A DNA stretch of 64,000 bases from a virus. Made by a program: the position numbers and the translations under genes. Shown piece by piece: positions 2,642 through 8,925 of the stretch (position 1 is the first letter of the stretch; each line of letters starts with the position of its first letter). The stretch lies in IMG/VR virus record IMGVR_UViG_3300050821_003950, positions 1-64,000 of that record. One strand, given 5' to 3'. The notes under the pieces are model-generated. The model made no database searches and had not been told where the DNA came from. It worked only from the letters and a program-made list of their open reading frames with translations.

Positions 2642-4783
2642 ATGGGAGAGGGAGAGATCCCCTCCCGCGATCGGTACATCGACGCCGTCTTCGAGTCGGG
2701 CGGCTACCTGTCTCGCGTCTTCCCCGGCTACAAGCCGCGGGCGGGACAGGTAGCGCTCGCTCGCGCCGTCGACCATTCGATCGCGGAGAGGACGCACCTA
2801 CTGGCCGAGGGGCCGACGGGCACGGGCAAGTCGCTCGCCTACGCCGTCCCCGCTTCCTACTACGCATGGTCGACGGGGCGCCCGGTCGTCATCGTCACCG
2901 CGAACATCGCCCTGCAAGAGCAGATCGTGAACAAGGATCTGCCGCTGCTCCAATCGATCGCGCCGTGGCCCTTCACCTTCGCGCTCATGAAGGGAAGGAA
3001 CAACTACCTTTGCGAAGACAAGCGCGCGACCTTCGCCGCGAACAAGTTCGCGAACTACGGTCAGGGCGGCTTCGGCTTCGAGCGCTCGGAAGAAGAGCGA
3101 CGGCAGCTCAAGATCGTGGGCGATTGGGCCGACGAGTGCCACGCCGCGGGACCGCTCGAAGAGAGCGGCGACGTGAGCGATCTTCCCTTCGTGCCCATGC
3201 CGCACGTCTGGAAAAACTTCTCGGTCTCGGCCGACGAGTGCAAGAAGAACCATTGCAAGTTCCGCGACGGGTGCTTCGCGAACGCGGCTTTCGATCGTGC
3301 GCGCACGGCGAAGGTCGTCGTCACGAACTATCACCTTCTCTTCGCTCACCTCTCGGTCTTCCTCTCGACCGGGATCGACATCGTGCTTCCTCCCTTCGAG
3401 GTCGCCGTGCTCGACGAGGCGCACAAGGCGGCCGACATCGCGCGCGACTTCTTCGGGTTCAAGATCACTCAAGAGGTCTGCAAGCGGCTCGGTCGGAAGA
3501 TCGGACGCGAAGACGCGCGCGTGCAGGAAGCGATCGATCGCGGATCGACCTACTTCTTCCATTCGATGCTGAACCTCCGACACGACCCCAAGCGCTACAA
3601 GGCGCGCATCACGGGCGACTTCATCTTCGACGAGACCGACTCATGGTCGCAGCTCAAAGACGCGCTCGGCGCCGCGTGCGGGATCTTCGAGCTTCGATGT
3701 CAGAAGGCGAGCGCGGCCTACGAGGCGATCCGCACGAACGGCGGCGGGCTCTCGAAGGAAGCGGACGACGCGCTCGACGAGGTCGGCGAAGCCGAGCGCG
3801 ATCGTGATCGTTGTCTCGAAGTGTCCGGTCAGCTCGCGCAGGCGATGGATCCTCGAAACAATCTCTCGAACGTCTTCTTTCTCGAAGAGGATGAGAAGGG
3901 TCGCGTCACCGTCAGCTCGAAACTGATCTACGCGAGCGAGGTGCTAGAGCCTGCTCTCTTCAACAAGGAAGCGCGGAGCCGCGGCCCCGACGGCTCGACC
4001 ATCATCGGGAACCCCGTCACCGTGATCTGCACGTCGGCGACGCTCGCGACCAACGGCACGAGCTTCGACTACGTCGCGGCCGAGATGGGCGTCCCGAAGG
4101 GCTATCACGAGCTTGTCGCTCAGTCCCCCTTCGATTGGCCGCGTCAGTGTCTTTTCATCGTTCCGAGCGACATGCCGAACCCGCAAGATGAAGAGTTCAA
4201 GGATGCAGTCGCGCGCACGGTCGAGAAGACGGTGCTCCTCGCGGGCGGGCGCACGCTCGCCCTCTTCACGAGCAATCGCGTCTTGAACCATACCTACGAC
4301 ACGATCGTCGGCGCGTGCAGGCGCAACCGGATCACGCTGCTCAAGCAAGGCGACGCGCCGCGCATGAAGCTCATCGAGCAATTCAAGGCCGACGTGTCGA
4401 GCGTGCTGCTCGGGACCGAGAGTTTTTGGGCGGGCGTCGACGTGCCCGGCGAAGCGTGCTCGGTCGTCATCATCGATCGTCTTCCGTTTCCGACGCCCGA
4501 CGATCCCGTGCTCGACGTGCTGAGCGCGGCCGATGACAAGTGGTTCTTCCGTTACAGTGTGCCGAGAGCGATGATCGCGTTCAAGCAAGGCTTCGGCCGC
4601 TTGATCCGATCGACCAGCGACAAGGGCGTTGTCGTATGTCTCGATCAGCGTCTTGCCACGAAACGATACGGTCGCGACTTCTTGAGAAGTCTTCCGCCCG
4701 TTCCGAAATCGACTCGACTCGAAGCTCTCGTCGACTGGCTCAAACAACCTCTTCCAATGGAAGAGGCATGGGACGCGCTATGA
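2642..4783 (+). CDS. dinG: DinG/YoaA-family ATP-dependent DNA helicase
   Basis: Q motif (RAGQ), EGPTGTGKSLAY, KGRNNYLC Fe-S cysteines, DEAH, TSATL, FWAGVDVPG, QGFGRLIR. Confidence 0.93.
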   Translation: MGEGEIPSRDRYIDAVFESGGYLSRVFPGYKPRAGQVALARAVDHSIAERTHLLAEGPTGTGKSLAYAVPASYYAWSTGRPVVIVTANIALQEQIVNKDLPLLQSIAPWPFTFALMKGRNNYLCEDKRATFAANKFANYGQGGFGFERSEEERRQLKIVGDWADECHAAGPLEESGDVSDLPFVPMPHVWKNFSVSADECKKNHCKFRDGCFANAAFDRARTAKVVVTNYHLLFAHLSVFLSTGIDIVLPPFEVAVLDEAHKAADIARDFFGFKITQEVCKRLGRKIGREDARVQEAIDRGSTYFFHSMLNLRHDPKRYKARITGDFIFDETDSWSQLKDALGAACGIFELRCQKASAAYEAIRTNGGGLSKEADDALDEVGEAERDRDRCLEVSGQLAQAMDPRNNLSNVFFLEEDEKGRVTVSSKLIYASEVLEPALFNKEARSRGPDGSTIIGNPVTVICTSATLATNGTSFDYVAAEMGVPKGYHELVAQSPFDWPRQCLFIVPSDMPNPQDEEFKDAVARTVEKTVLLAGGRTLALFTSNRVLNHTYDTIVGACRRNRITLLKQGDAPRMKLIEQFKADVSSVLLGTESFWAGVDVPGEACSVVIIDRLPFPTPDDPVLDVLSAADDKWFFRYSVPRAMIAFKQGFGRLIRSTSDKGVVVCLDQRLATKRYGRDFLRSLPPVPKSTRLEALVDWLKQPLPMEEAWDAL

Positions 4784-5283
4784 TTACCGACGAATGGCTA
4801 GCCGGTTTCTGCGACGGCGAGAGCTGCATGATGCTCGTCCGATGCGGCGGAACGAAAACAAGACGAGGACTCTGGCAGCCGCTCTTTCGTGTCAACCTAC
4901 GAGACGATGACGGGGATTTACTGCACGCGATTCGCGAGCACGTCGAGGTTGGGTCCCTTTTCAATCAACCCGTTCATCCAACCCATGCACGAAACTCAAA
5001 TCCGCAACGAGCGTGGCAAGTCAGCGGGCGAGCCTGCGCGAAGATCGTAGAGATTCTTGATCGAGCCCCACTGCGATCGAAGAAGCGTTTTGAATATCCG
5101 ATCTGGCGCGAGGCGGTTCTACTCTATGTCGCCAATCGCGGAGCACACGGAAACGCGCAAACGAAAGCGTCGCTAGCTGCGTTGAATGCTCGTGATGAGC
5201 TGATGGGAGTGCTTCACGATCGGCTCGTCGAGATCCGAAAATACTCGGGGTCGCGAACAGAGGAAGCATGGGACGCTCTATGA
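4780..5283 (+). CDS. LAGLIDADG homing endonuclease (single motif)
   Basis: WLAGFCDGESC motif, PLRSKK...W; lower GC than flanks; ATGA-coupled. Confidence 0.85.
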   Translation: MITDEWLAGFCDGESCMMLVRCGGTKTRRGLWQPLFRVNLRDDDGDLLHAIREHVEVGSLFNQPVHPTHARNSNPQRAWQVSGRACAKIVEILDRAPLRSKKRFEYPIWREAVLLYVANRGAHGNAQTKASLAALNARDELMGVLHDRLVEIRKYSGSRTEEAWDAL

Positions 5284-5603
5284 AGCTGCGCGGGCTCTCG
5301 ACACGCGCGATCAACGCACTGCTCGCCGCTTGCCACGGCTGGCCCATCGACAGCAACCGTCTCGGCTCGCTCACCGCGGACATGCGAGCGCGCACGCCGG
5401 CCGAGATGCTCGCCAAGCTTGAAACGGCGCGGCTCGTGCGCCCGTGGGTGAGCATTCGCACGATGCTCCTCGCGACGAAGGGTTGCGGCATGAATACGCT
5501 TTACGAGATCGCGCAGTGGATGGGTGGCGAGACTCGTGACGCGATGCTTCGCACGAAGGCGCACGTCTGCGTCTGCCGCTCGTGCGACAAGAGGATGCCG
5601 TGA
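5280..5603 (+). CDS. hypothetical protein (weak RNA polymerase alpha-CTD-like HhH)
   Basis: LSTRAINAL...LLATKGCGMNTLYEI resembles alpha-CTD helix-hairpin-helix; C-terminal CxCxxC. Confidence 0.45.
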   Translation: MKLRGLSTRAINALLAACHGWPIDSNRLGSLTADMRARTPAEMLAKLETARLVRPWVSIRTMLLATKGCGMNTLYEIAQWMGGETRDAMLRTKAHVCVCRSCDKRMP

Positions 5604-6094
5604 AAGTCGTGTGGCTCGCGGTCCCCGAGTTCCCAGGCTACGCCGTCTCGAACACGGGGCTCGTGCTCCGCACCGTCGACGGCGTGATCCTCGCGCAGCG
5701 TCCGAACCACGGCGGCTACCTGCGCGTCGTCCTCTGGCGCGGCGGCAAGCCGACGCACCGACGCGTGCACGCGCTCGTGCTCGAAGCGTTCAAGGGGCCG
5801 AGGCCGAGCCCGCGCGAACACGGCGCGCACGCCCCCGACCGCTCGAAGCTGAACAACACGATCGCGAATCTCCGATGGGCGACGCCCGAAGAGAACGAGG
5901 CCGACAAGAAGGCGCACGGCACGCACAAAGGCGGCGGCAAGGTGAAGCCGCTCACCGACTTCGAGGTCGACCGAGTTCGCTTGTGGCACGCGGGCGGCGC
6001 GAGCCTCGCCTCGATCGCCTCGCGGCTCGGCGTGCACCGCTCGACCATCTCGCGCGCGGTGCGCGGGCTGCATCACAAGCCGAGGGCCGCATGA
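5600..6094 (+). CDS. NUMOD4/HNH homing endonuclease with C-terminal HTH
   Basis: WLAVPEFPGYAVSNTG, VHALVLEAF, H...NNTIANLRWAT..EN. Confidence 0.88.
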   Translation: MKVVWLAVPEFPGYAVSNTGLVLRTVDGVILAQRPNHGGYLRVVLWRGGKPTHRRVHALVLEAFKGPRPSPREHGAHAPDRSKLNNTIANLRWATPEENEADKKAHGTHKGGGKVKPLTDFEVDRVRLWHAGGASLASIASRLGVHRSTISRAVRGLHHKPRAA

Positions 6095-6846
6095 CCGACG
6101 GGATCCTTCTGCCCGGATGGGACTGCGCGCAGTGTCGAGCATTCAACGGCACCGCGAAGGAAGACTTGCAGACGTGCCGATGTTGCGGCGCGCCGAGGCC
6201 GAAGAAGACGCCCGAGGGCGTGACCTGCGAGAAGCACGGGGACAACTGCCCCCTCTACCAAGGATGGGACATGCGCCGAGTCGTGCTCGAATCTCCTTTC
6301 GCTGGCGACGTCGAGGCAAACATCGCCTATGCGCGCGCCTGCATTCGCGACTGTCTCTTGCGCGGCGACGCGCCGATCGCGAGTCACCTTCTCTTCACGC
6401 AACCCGGCATCCTGCGCGACGGCGTCATCGAAGAGAGATCGCTCGGCATGCGCGCGGGCTTCGCGTGGACGAGACAAGCCGAGGCCGTCGTCGTCTACAC
6501 CGATCGCGGGATCTCGTCGGGCATGAAGTCGGGCATCGGGCGGGCGCAGAAGATGGGCGTCCCCGTCGAGTACCGCAAGCTCGGCGCGGGCGCGACGCTC
6601 GTGGACGTGTTCGCCGCAGAAGCGAGCGCGAACGACACCGACGCCGACCTGACGCCCGCGATCCTCGCCTCGATGCTCGTGACCGTCGGCGTCGACGTCA
6701 CGCCGATCGAGCTTGTCGAGGTGCTGCAAGGTCACGAAGACGTGCTGATGGCCGCGGCGTGGGCGCGAGCAACGCACAAGAAGAACCAAGGCGACGCGAG
6801 CGTCGTCGTCCCCGACCCGCCCGAGTGGCTCAAGGCGCACGTATGA
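6091..6846 (+). CDS. Zn-finger + nucleoside 2-deoxyribosyltransferase-like (DUF4406-like) domain protein
   Basis: WDCAQC...CRCC; VVLESPFAGDVEANIAYAR...PIASHLLF...VVVYTDRGISSGM. Confidence 0.6.
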   Translation: MTDGILLPGWDCAQCRAFNGTAKEDLQTCRCCGAPRPKKTPEGVTCEKHGDNCPLYQGWDMRRVVLESPFAGDVEANIAYARACIRDCLLRGDAPIASHLLFTQPGILRDGVIEERSLGMRAGFAWTRQAEAVVVYTDRGISSGMKSGIGRAQKMGVPVEYRKLGAGATLVDVFAAEASANDTDADLTPAILASMLVTVGVDVTPIELVEVLQGHEDVLMAAAWARATHKKNQGDASVVVPDPPEWLKAHV

Positions 6847-8657
6847 TCAACGGCGTTCCCACGCTGCTCGACCTTCCGATCTGGGAGGAGCTTGTTCCGC
6901 ATTTGAAGATGACGAGCTTCAAAGAGGACAAGTATGTGCGCGTCGACTTCTCGCCGTTGCCCGCAGAGCTGGCGACGCGAGCGCTCGCCGTCGTCGTGTC
7001 CTGTATCTCGTGCGCGCGAATCATCCATCCCATGCGCTCTCGAAAAAAGTCGACGCGCTCACGCATCGCCGGCACGCCGATCGAGAGTGGACTCTTTCAC
7101 ACGGCGACGTGCATGCAGAAAGAAAACTCCGGGTGTTGCCGCACGCACGTCGCGCGCGAGTATCGCGCTCGGTTTCGTGATCTCTACTGGAAAGGAACGG
7201 ACCCCATGAGTCACCACGCGAACGTCATCGTTGCCGATCCCCCTTGGCCCTTCGGCGACAAGCTCCCCGGCCCCGGCCGCGGCGCCGAGAAGCACTACAA
7301 GGTGATGACGATCGACGAGATCAAGAGCTACCTCGACGTCGGGCCGCTGAAAGGGCTCGTCGAAGACGATGCGATGCTCGTCCTCTGGCGCGTGGGCTCG
7401 CAGCAACAAGAGGCACTCGACGTCGTCAAAGCGTGGGGTTTCGTCGTCAAGAGCGAGATCGTGTGGGTGAAGACGAAGAAGGGCACGCCTGACGACGAGA
7501 GCGACGAGGCGATGGACGATCCCAAGTCGACCAAGATCGGGATGGGCCACTACGTCAGGAACGAGCACGAGATCGCGCTCGTCTGCACGCGCGGCAAGTT
7601 CAAGGTGGCCGATCGTGGCGTGCGCTCGACCTTCCGCGCTCCGCTCGGCGAACACTCCGAGAAGCCTGCGAAGTTCTTCGAGCTGATCGAAAGGCTGGCG
7701 GGGGAGGGGCGAAAAGGCCACATGGTCGAATTGTTCGCGAGAAAAATCCGGCCGGGTTGGCACGTGATGGGCGATGAGATCCCATCGGGCTACGCGTGGA
7801 CGCCGGCCGGCAATACCTCAAGTGAGGTATTAGCGGCCCCCGGGACAAACACTTTACCGCTCGGCGCGAAGGTCCCGCCCGAGGCGTGGGGGCTCATGTC
7901 GATATGGGACAGGGCGAAATTCCGCGCCCATGCCTACGACCCCGAGGTCGACGGGCGCCCCGACAGCGACGAGGCGGCCGAAGAGGCGATCGTGCGGGAG
8001 ATGGTGAAGGCTCCGAAGGCTGCGCGCAAGCCGCGGAAGAAGAAGGGCGATCACCCGCAACAAGAGACCGACGAGCAGATCCGCGCCGAGCTGGCGAAGG
8101 CTCCGGTCTCTGCGCATCACGAGGTGCCGCCCGCGAAGACGAGCGGCGCAGCCGAGGCGCAGTCCAAGGCGGCAGTTCCGCACACGAACGGCACGAACGG
8201 CACCGTGAAATACTCGCTCAGCGACGAGACCGCCCGAGCGCTCTACGTCGAGCGCGCCGTGACCGAGAAGCTACTCTCGCCGCAAGAGGCGAAGAACACG
8301 GCCGAAGGCTGGATCCTCTTGCAGTCGCGCGCGCCCTCGGGATGGTTCGATCGCGACCCGTTCGGCGACGCCGTCAAACCGCCGCCCACGACCTCGAACG
8401 TCGACACGGACTTCGGCAGTCTCGCGACCGAGCTGACGAGCGCGGGCGCGCCGATCAGCATCGTCACCCTCGCGGGCCTGACGCCCATGAAGCGTCACGT
8501 CCTGCGCGCGTGGCTCGACAACGAGAAGGGCAACCTCGACAGCTTGCCCGAATGGTGGCGCGACGCCGTCGGGTGGGGACCGAAGCTCGCCGACACGTGG
8601 AGCGCGGCGCGCACGCGGCTCGCGAAGTGGGAAGAGAGCGACGAGGCAACGGTGTGA
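6843..8657 (+). CDS. MT-A70-family N6-adenine methyltransferase with N- and C-terminal extensions (internal start at 7206 possible)
   Basis: VIVADPPW, LVLW, WGF...IVWVK, GMGHYVRNEHE, HSEKP, VELFAR...GW...GDE. Confidence 0.88.
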   Translation: MINGVPTLLDLPIWEELVPHLKMTSFKEDKYVRVDFSPLPAELATRALAVVVSCISCARIIHPMRSRKKSTRSRIAGTPIESGLFHTATCMQKENSGCCRTHVAREYRARFRDLYWKGTDPMSHHANVIVADPPWPFGDKLPGPGRGAEKHYKVMTIDEIKSYLDVGPLKGLVEDDAMLVLWRVGSQQQEALDVVKAWGFVVKSEIVWVKTKKGTPDDESDEAMDDPKSTKIGMGHYVRNEHEIALVCTRGKFKVADRGVRSTFRAPLGEHSEKPAKFFELIERLAGEGRKGHMVELFARKIRPGWHVMGDEIPSGYAWTPAGNTSSEVLAAPGTNTLPLGAKVPPEAWGLMSIWDRAKFRAHAYDPEVDGRPDSDEAAEEAIVREMVKAPKAARKPRKKKGDHPQQETDEQIRAELAKAPVSAHHEVPPAKTSGAAEAQSKAAVPHTNGTNGTVKYSLSDETARALYVERAVTEKLLSPQEAKNTAEGWILLQSRAPSGWFDRDPFGDAVKPPPTTSNVDTDFGSLATELTSAGAPISIVTLAGLTPMKRHVLRAWLDNEKGNLDSLPEWWRDAVGWGPKLADTWSAARTRLAKWEESDEATV

Positions 8658-8670
8658 AAGGAGAAGGGCC

Positions 8671-8925
8671 ATGGAAGAGACATTCGATTTCGGTGAAGCG
8701 ATCAAGAGACTGAAGGCCGGCTCGCGTGTCGCGCGCGCAGGTTGGAACGGTAAGGGCATGTGGATCGTCCTGATCAAGCCCGGCAACGCGATGCACACGT
8801 CGGCCGCGGAGAAGTACCCGATGCAAGAGTGCATCGGCATGAAGAACGCGCAGGAAGAGATGCAGCCGGGATGGCTCGCGAGTCAGCTCGATATGCTCGC
8901 CGAGGACTGGACCGAGGTGAAGTGA
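8671..8925 (+). CDS. DUF2829 protein (Tad2-like anti-defence sponge family)
   Basis: FDFGEAIKRLKAG.RVARAGWNGKGMWI...GWLASQLDMLAEDW signature. Confidence 0.85.
   Translation: MEETFDFGEAIKRLKAGSRVARAGWNGKGMWIVLIKPGNAMHTSAAEKYPMQECIGMKNAQEEMQPGWLASQLDMLAEDWTEVK

Follow-up and report, generated by a model that had tools for sequence, protein, structure and literature searches.

The stretch analysed here, called the window throughout, comprises the first 64 kb of a linear 95.6-kb virus record of IMG/VR (IMGVR_UViG_3300050821_003950), whose estimated completeness is 74%; the GC content of the window is 65%. Near its left end lie a gene for a DinG/Rad3-like helicase, a small free-standing gene for a LAGLIDADG homing endonuclease directly behind it, and a third gene that belongs to no recognized family (Table 1). 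The last codons of the helicase gene are present twice, once at its own end and once at the end of the endonuclease gene, and it is this element, the endonuclease gene together with the duplicated gene end on its two sides, that is the subject of the present analysis.

Table 1. Features of the dinG end in the window and of two analogous repeats in other viral contigs (last two rows, in the coordinates of those contigs). GC3, G+C content at third codon positions; an asterisk marks a stop codon.
Feature	Position	Strand	Basis or remark
DinG/Rad3-like helicase gene, 713 aa	2642..4783	+	Pfam, PHROG, homologues; its end is duplicated
Final ~51 DinG codons, endonuclease-like codon composition	4630..4783	+	GC3 change point; probable co-converted replacement end
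Repeat copy 1	4760-4783	+	Last 7 DinG codons and stop; terminal ATGA contains the endonuclease start codon
Free-standing single-motif LAGLIDADG homing endonuclease gene, 167 aa	4780..5283	+	Pfam LAGLIDADG_1, full-length match
Repeat copy 2	5260-5283	+	DinG-tail fragment, in-frame endonuclease C-terminus; ATGA is endonuclease stop and next-gene start
Next gene, 107 aa, no family	5280..5603	+	Coupled by ATGA; resident-type composition
HNH_3 + NUMOD4 + HTH_38 endonuclease-type gene, 170 aa	5582-6094	+	Domain matches; 300 nt past the LAGLIDADG gene
L062 repeat, 26 nt	3454-3479 and 4028-4053		Tail-sheath 5' end; MALAGIET twice, three silent differences
L054 repeat, 22 nt	3441-3462 and 3884-3905		Terminase large-subunit 3' end; YGGVFA* attached, YGGVYA* displaced

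The helicase gene ends in gaa gag gca tgg gac gcg cta tga and the LAGLIDADG open reading frame (ORF) in gag gaa gca tgg gac gct cta tga, exactly as the first-pass annotation of this DNA had stated when it pointed to one peptide encoded twice with three silent changes. Both copies translate to EEAWDAL*; they are identical at 21 of 24 nt (88%), lie at a spacing of 500 nt and form the top direct repeat in a repeat search of the region. The three differences, at repeat positions 3, 6 and 18, all fall on third codon positions and are all silent, for which the probability is P = 0.009 if three random substitutions had struck these codons. The degenerate pattern for EEAWDAL* occurs twice in the window, compared with 0.00 occurrences expected from 100 shuffles. 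Both copies terminate in CTATGA: in the first, the TGA stop codon of DinG (4781-4783) overlaps the ATG of the endonuclease (4780-4782), and in the second, the TGA of the endonuclease (5281-5283) overlaps the ATG of the 107-aa ORF (5280-5282). The claim that each copy supplies an ATGA overlap is borne out as well, both being intact at 4780 and 5280. The three genes form an unbroken chain of such overlaps, in which DinG and its stop/start coupling are undamaged and neither an intron nor an intein is necessary. Beyond the 24-nt borders of the two copies, no similarity was found on either side, and no additional or older fragments of the DinG tail were found downstream of the second copy.

The endonuclease gene is an intact LAGLIDADG_1 gene, in agreement with its earlier designation. 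It matches the Pfam family (PF00961) with 33.8 bits against a cut-off of 23.1 (E-value 6.5e-8) over profile positions 1-102 of 102, and a six-frame search of the 95.6-kb record returned it, at 34.2 bits, as the sole LAGLIDADG gene. In an alignment with its 12 detectable relatives (13 sequences in total), the motif WLAGFCDGE occupies residues 6-14, with D12, G13 and E14 invariant, and the window endonuclease has each of the 19 residues that do not vary in the family, among them the motif's acidic residue in LAGFCDGE. The family profile matches the PDB chains of I-OnuI, I-AniI and I-PanMI at 1e-15 to 1e-23, and does so in both domains of these types of enzymes. LAGLIDADG enzymes cleave a long target site-specifically, leaving 4-nt 3' overhangs, and members with a single motif work as homodimers. 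With one motif in 167 aa, the window endonuclease is probably homodimeric. A longer version of its ORF, the frame of which is open up to a GTG at 4540, was rejected because the added text is R/S-rich, out of frame and unlike the N-termini of the family.

Some relatives of the endonuclease (Wee gp78, P0126 and P0131) are found in frame within DNA methylase genes, just past the DPPY/DPPW motif. In Mycobacterium phage Wee, gp78 (L217, 1318-2991), annotated as a coding sequence of 557 aa, shows LAGLIDADG_1 at residues 63-160 between methylase parts, and P0126 and P0131 start with ..ADPPV and ..ADPPW, respectively. A Hint (intein) domain is not reported in these methylase-embedded relatives.

The upstream gene is a helicase gene, matching Pfam Helicase_C_2 (7.8e-39), together with DEAD and ResIII, and PHROG 2488, DNA helicase (6e-58). 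A search covering 5.8 billion proteins retrieved DinG homologues at 80, 72, 67, 66, 66 and 63% identity, and the C-termini of the close ones read ..IEEAWDAL, ..EVAWDAL, ..PEAWDAP and ..PEAWDAI, among others. The closest homologue, P0004 (80%), ends in EEAWDAL as the window DinG does, and a tip of the form AWD[AE][LP] is present in more than 30 homologues. Since the tip recurs across DinG homologues, the AWD type is, judging from these comparisons, an old and conserved feature of this helicase clade. In contrast, 11 of the 13 aligned members of the endonuclease family terminate at a conserved R-x-Y-x-G-x-R. An extra eight C-terminal residues were observed only in the window endonuclease (..RKYSGSR-TEEAWDAL) and in P0123 (..RKYGGRR-ELTSWDAL), its single close relative at 72% identity. 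Because the DinG clade keeps the AWD tip while the endonuclease family normally stops earlier, the last residues of the endonuclease are borrowed from DinG, and not the reverse. No other protein of the window has a WD[AE]L terminus. The C-terminus of DinG had been described in the first-pass annotation as rebuilt, and indeed the window DinG has the exact tail of P0004, the tail being native to DinG.

The tips of the DinG homologues P0004-P0059 fall into discrete types, ..AWD[AE][LP], ..D(D/E)IPF (reminiscent of the bacterial SSB tail) and ..EE(I/V)DP(L/F)S, which look like an exchangeable docking motif. In addition, numerous DinG homologues (P0010, P0030, P0032, P0035, P0036, P0045, P0077, P0081 and others) are 850-1130 aa long and contain the intein/Hint-type Pfam domains PF05203, PF07591, PF14890 and PF14528; judged by these domain matches, selfish elements of several kinds frequently target the DinG-type helicase gene.

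The composition of the locus changes at two points. The left one lies within DinG, some 51 codons before its end (about nt 4630), where GC3 falls from 0.843 to 0.551; the log-likelihood gain for a change at this point is 35.9, compared with about 24 for a change at 4750, close to the gene boundary. The right one is at nt 5285, exactly past the second repeat copy, where GC3 is back to 0.86. The endonuclease gene has a GC3 of 0.50-0.67 versus 0.8-0.95 for the flanking genes (about 0.85 for the genome). When the last 51 codons of the 50 high-GC3 ORFs of at least 150 aa in the window are compared, those of DinG show the lowest GC3 of all (0.49), followed by 0.73, with a mean of 0.867 (sd 0.08). 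At the protein level, this final stretch is 90% identical to P0004, similar to the stretch preceding it; the chimeric nature of the DinG 5' and 3' parts is judged from composition, the tract matching the endonuclease gene and being unique among the 50 ORFs. GC3 is low from about 4630 through the endonuclease gene to 5283 and, therefore, the last ~51 DinG codons were probably imported together with that gene. The simplest reading is a co-conversion tract, in which ~150 nt of the DinG end, the first repeat copy and the endonuclease gene entered as one piece, from a donor that was a relative with a similar helicase and a lower GC3. The second copy probably lay within the same imported piece.

The distribution of the two genes points, indirectly, to a mobile insert. 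At least seven DinG homologues of 63% identity or more were found versus one close homologue of the endonuclease, and therefore most relatives are probably devoid of the insert. The DinG relatives of 63-80% identity are known as proteins only, and P0123 and the closest DinG homologue come from different data sources. The genomic context can be read in three more distant relatives, L070, L132 and L071, all without an endonuclease insert. In L070 (56% identity in DinG, the closest among the metagenome matches listed), DinG ends in ..PPAWDAP* with an ATGA overlap onto an unrelated gene for a small membrane protein; in L132, it ends in ..PPAWDEP* with a GTGA overlap, and the next gene is unrelated; in L071, a DUF7768 gene follows 15 nt behind DinG. 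The right flank of DinG is, in the relatives compared, variable, whereas the tail and the stop/start overlap are conserved. Scans of viral contigs with single proteins retrieved no relatives, and with alignments the closest DinG was at 45% and the closest endonuclease at 43% identity. Among GenBank phages, there was no DNA match, and protein identity was at most 32% for DinG and 34% for the endonuclease. One soil sequencing run contained 9% of the words of the window, and its alignment to the stretch gave only two identical 151-nt contigs, located downstream of the junction; no joint across the insert was found in this run, which is uninformative regarding an empty allele or the habitat.

The same arrangement recurs in other phage genes. 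In total, 31 viral loci with members of the endonuclease family were scanned for direct repeats between both ends of the endonuclease ORF, and the best scores were those of L062 (18.5), the window (16.5) and L054 (14.5), versus a maximum of 12.5 in 186 shuffles and of 11 in an inverted-repeat control. No flank repeat was found in 37 loci of the family from cellular genomes (23-39% identity), with scores of at most 11.

In L062, the duplicated end is the beginning of the gene. The endonuclease starts with MALAGIET, as does the tail-sheath gene located 10 nt past the endonuclease stop; the endonuclease uses the native ribosome site and the first eight sheath codons, and the second sheath copy stands behind a new AGGAGG. 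Empty alleles are available in L191-L194, whose sheath is 86% identical and lacks the endonuclease gene: their upstream region aligns before the first copy, while their sheath start aligns to both copies of L062. Low GC3 at the sheath 5' end of L062 was considered as a signature of import and rejected, as it is also present in the empty alleles. In L054, the endonuclease gene is on the opposite strand of the terminase gene, the last codons of which are read antisense as the C-terminus of the endonuclease, and the displaced YGGVYA* copy is non-coding, 17 nt upstream of the endonuclease start. The empty alleles are those of five relatives (L199-L203, 69-72% identity), which end in MGGIFA*, MGGIYA* or MGGVYA*; the single replacement difference between the L054 copies is therefore a natural variant among functional terminases without insert. 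Co-conversion in L054 was uninformative, the terminase C-termini being variable in all relatives, and no close relatives of the L062 and L054 endonucleases were found in IMG/VR. When the window, L062 and L054 are pooled, 8 of 9 differences between copies are silent (P ~1e-4). A freely drifting copy would be expected to show mostly peptide-altering changes, unlike what is found here, and this silent bias fits two orthologous gene ends, each of which would have belonged to a working gene until recently.

Two further observations were made in these phages. The terminases of L202 and L203 (1501-3030) have 95-100% protein identity in 40-residue windows, and their last ~16 residues are strongly different (..RRKRIPAAGNMGGIFA versus ..KRRTIPST-PMGGVYA); this divergence may have been left behind by an end replacement at an earlier time, the genomes now being without an endonuclease gene. 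In L069, an 18-nt repeat (AAAGAAAGGAAAATAATG, 1765-1782; AAAGAAGGGGAAATAATG, 2348-2365) is found at the endonuclease start and 125 nt past its stop, and its score of 13.0 barely exceeds those of the shuffles. Either a ribosome site has been duplicated together with the start, or the two sites are merely similar ribosome sites.

The anatomy of the locus is observed here, as are the tail taken over from DinG, the tract of deviating composition, a right flank that varies among relatives, and analogous loci that repeat the pattern and have empty alleles. Considering these observations, we favour with reasonable confidence the interpretation of the element as an end-replacement homing cassette in a phage, similar to the WHO elements of yeasts and the mORFs of fungi. 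The homing cycle that we infer would proceed as follows. The endonuclease would cut insert-free DinG alleles within their last ~150 nt. The left end of the break would then invade the donor DinG and copy its 3' end (~4630-4783) along with the endonuclease gene, and the right end would pair with the 24-nt DinG-tail fragment behind that gene, that is, the second repeat copy, proposed as the right-hand homology arm of the cassette. To the right of the break, this fragment would be the only sequence common to relatives, and pairing there would let the cassette enter relatives with a different downstream gene. The silent differences would correspond to the divergence of two orthologous tails, each once a real gene end, and may also shield the occupied allele from cleavage. 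The first-pass annotation had proposed a homing element that recodes its target. The architecture and the probable mode of spread agree with that proposal, but recoding as a means of immunity does not stand out from our results, as the ordinary divergence of orthologous tails explains the silent differences equally well.

Several points weigh against this interpretation. We infer the insertion point and the resident copy rather than reading them from an empty allele of close relatives of this phage, and a homology arm of 24 nt would be very short. No gene of the RecA, RecT, ERF or SSB families was found in the 74%-complete record, and no pseudo-palindrome above shuffles was found in three reconstructed target sites. 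The activity and the specificity of the nuclease are only predicted. Regarding the two copies, free codons end in G or C in 3/5 cases in the first and 2/5 in the second, both being low in GC3, and a hand calculation from the GC3 values over these five free codons gives a likelihood ratio of ~11 for the donor type in the second copy. This supposedly resident copy looks donor-like, and the right-hand crossover is not settled by it, although its composition fits a donor already carrying both copies. Finally, the drop of GC3 in DinG could have another cause, though it is unique among the 50 ORFs.

The alternative that survives best, which we nevertheless consider unlikely, is that the duplication was made in situ, through an insertion by illegitimate recombination at the overlap of DinG and the next gene, without any imported DinG end and with both copies held by selection. 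Selection would act on the first copy for the DinG tip and on the second for the start and overlap of the next gene, leaving only silent changes. Indeed, the expression of the three genes needs both copies, in the sheath analogue each copy resembles the other more than it does the 86% empty allele, and the two window copies have similar low-GC3 codons. Nevertheless, such an origin leaves unexplained the low-GC3 tract starting ~150 nt inside DinG, and selection on the start context does not predict silent-only changes in a peptide that is dispensable to the endonuclease family. Moreover, although the displaced copy of L054 does not code for protein, the changes that set it apart all occur between functional terminase orthologues as well.

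Slightly less probable still is that the endonuclease gene and the repeat are fossils, remnants of a past invasion in which the enzyme is now inactive or immobile in this lineage. The activity of the enzyme is a prediction from its sequence, and the HNH endonuclease gene 300 nt downstream suggests a site where selfish genes may end up as remnants. In contrast, the ORF is full length with 19/19 family-invariant residues, including the acidic residue of the catalytic motif, and its GC3 of 0.55 has not drifted toward the 0.85 of the genome (0.9 in the HNH gene), which argues for a recent arrival.

The tail of the endonuclease could also have been kept as a working peptide, an AWDAL-type docking motif borrowed to reach the partner of DinG, for instance in the replication or repair machinery, which we regard as improbable. 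The conservation of the AWD[AE][LP] tip in one clade, replaced by ..D(D/E)IPF (SSB-tail-like) or ..EE(I/V)DP(L/F)S in others, suggests a short linear interaction motif, and the 72% relative P0123 also has a WDAL end. However, WDAL* overlaps the start of the next gene, and this nucleotide constraint accounts for its retention; the four preceding residues differ between the two endonucleases (TEEA versus ELTS); and no partner is known. Nor is there a common peptide logic with the analogous loci, as the host tail is read in antisense in L054, and in L062 it is an N-terminus that is duplicated. Lastly, a chance match or an assembly artefact fusing two strain variants is very improbable: the window is a metagenome assembly and the only public run found contains just fragments of the stretch, but zero matches are expected in shuffles, three intact reading frames are joined by ATGA, a 24-nt repeat with three mismatches is neither long nor similar enough to misguide an assembler, and the same architecture exists in two unrelated contigs.

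Downstream of the element, the 107-aa ORF has a GC3 of 0.77-0.90 from its first codons; no Pfam or PHROG match was found for it, nor any homologue among the 5.8 billion proteins in a word-based search. The HNH gene that follows has a resident-like GC3 (0.9), and no flank duplication was found around it. Together with the LAGLIDADG gene, these two genes make up the 1.3-kb island that separates DinG from DUF7768 in the window. Long ORFs of the plus strand that overlap each other (6117-8657 and 5524-6846) contain the DUF7768 domain (~6277-6576) and an MT-A70 methyltransferase domain (~7222-7780). Further downstream, an 84-aa ORF (8671-8925, plus strand) matches Tad2-like (Thoeris anti-defence 2) with an E-value of 1.9e-24.

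Free-standing homing endonucleases are thought to require a gap between genes, unless they hide in an intron or intein. End replacement would provide a third route in phages, with entry at the last (or first) codons of a gene together with a spare copy, which works even when genes overlap. This would account for the presence of selfish nucleases in tightly coupled essential operons (helicase, terminase, tail sheath) without cost, and for the ends of such genes being mosaics of foreign origin. Annotators gain a signature, namely a small ORF bracketed by short direct repeats of a gene end that differ by silent changes, and it helps to locate mobile nucleases together with their probable target sites, a raw material for engineered meganucleases. 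As a tentative extension, which we hold as possible rather than probable, the duplication of 22-26 nt of a gene end may be a general strategy of the free-standing LAGLIDADG genes of phages, the silent differences protecting the occupied allele. If this is correct, both homology arms would lie inside one conserved gene, and the cassette would be portable across mosaic genomes with different neighbours; the strategy would function at either end of a gene, 3' or 5', and irrespective of strand, keeping operons of overlapping genes intact. Many of the puzzling short repeats at the ends of phage genes would then be marks of homing, whether present or past, and homing footprints would also be seen where phage genes that are otherwise identical diverge sharply at their ends (e.g. 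the terminases of L202 and L203).

A search for this layout in phages within the literature collection consulted retrieved no description, which is not a proof of absence. Among phage elements, the closest parallel is the intronless homing of the T4-like free-standing endonucleases SegF, SegG and MobE (reviewed in PMC2988022). As in the window, these are free-standing endonuclease genes between conserved phage genes; they are sporadic among relatives, as the window gene probably is, and they spread through double-strand-break repair with co-conversion of flanking markers, as is proposed for the window. In contrast, the T4 genes are of the GIY-YIG or HNH type and occupy intergenic spacers, whereas the window has an ATGA overlap and no spacer, and it duplicates 24 nt of host coding sequence, while no duplication of host codons is described in that review.

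FBA1 is the homing target of the WHO elements found in the yeasts Torulaspora and Lachancea (Coughlan et al., 2020, PMC7282813), whose layout also resembles that of the window. In both cases, the endonuclease gene is directly behind a conserved host gene and needs no splicing, the donor version takes the place of the host gene's 3' end at each homing event, as is proposed for the window, and a 3'-end fragment of the host gene behind the endonuclease gene is, or in the window would be, the recombination site. The 5' and 3' parts of the host gene also evolve differently, which in the window corresponds to the GC3 break at ~nt 4630. However, WHO proteins are intein-like (Hint, LAGLIDADG and zinc finger), nuclear and meiotic, whereas the window enzyme is a 167-aa single-motif LAGLIDADG_1 protein of a phage. 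The displaced fragment of yeasts is ~400 nt long and decays, while that of the window has 24 nt and is functional, as the C-terminus of the endonuclease and the start of the next gene. The cluster of older fragments is also lacking in the window.

A further resemblance is with the mORF gene hybrids of fungal mitochondria, reported in Allomyces macrogynus atp6, in Glomus atp6, atp9, cox2 and nad3, in Phlebia cox2 and atp6, and in Ophiostoma rps3, where a carboxy-terminal duplication gives the host gene a foreign end and displaces its native one (PMC3630166, PMC4019555). As in the window, a conserved gene has a LAGLIDADG (or GIY-YIG) ORF at its 3' end, accompanied by a duplicate of a C-terminal coding segment; the attached copy continues the host reading frame, the other copy, which in mORFs is the native one, has moved downstream, and the protein is kept while the nucleotides differ. 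The window endonuclease even belongs to the same Pfam family (LAGLIDADG_1) and matches the I-OnuI-type, rps3-associated enzymes in the PDB. The differences are that mORFs are organellar, whereas the window is a phage operon with overlapping stop and start codons; that its duplication covers only seven codons, the displaced copy being reused for the endonuclease stop and the start of the next gene; and that, among the related phage cases, one involves a 5' end (L062) and another lies on the opposite strand (L054). The layout is known from yeast and fungal mitochondria, and the window case is best read as a phage variant of end-replacement homing.

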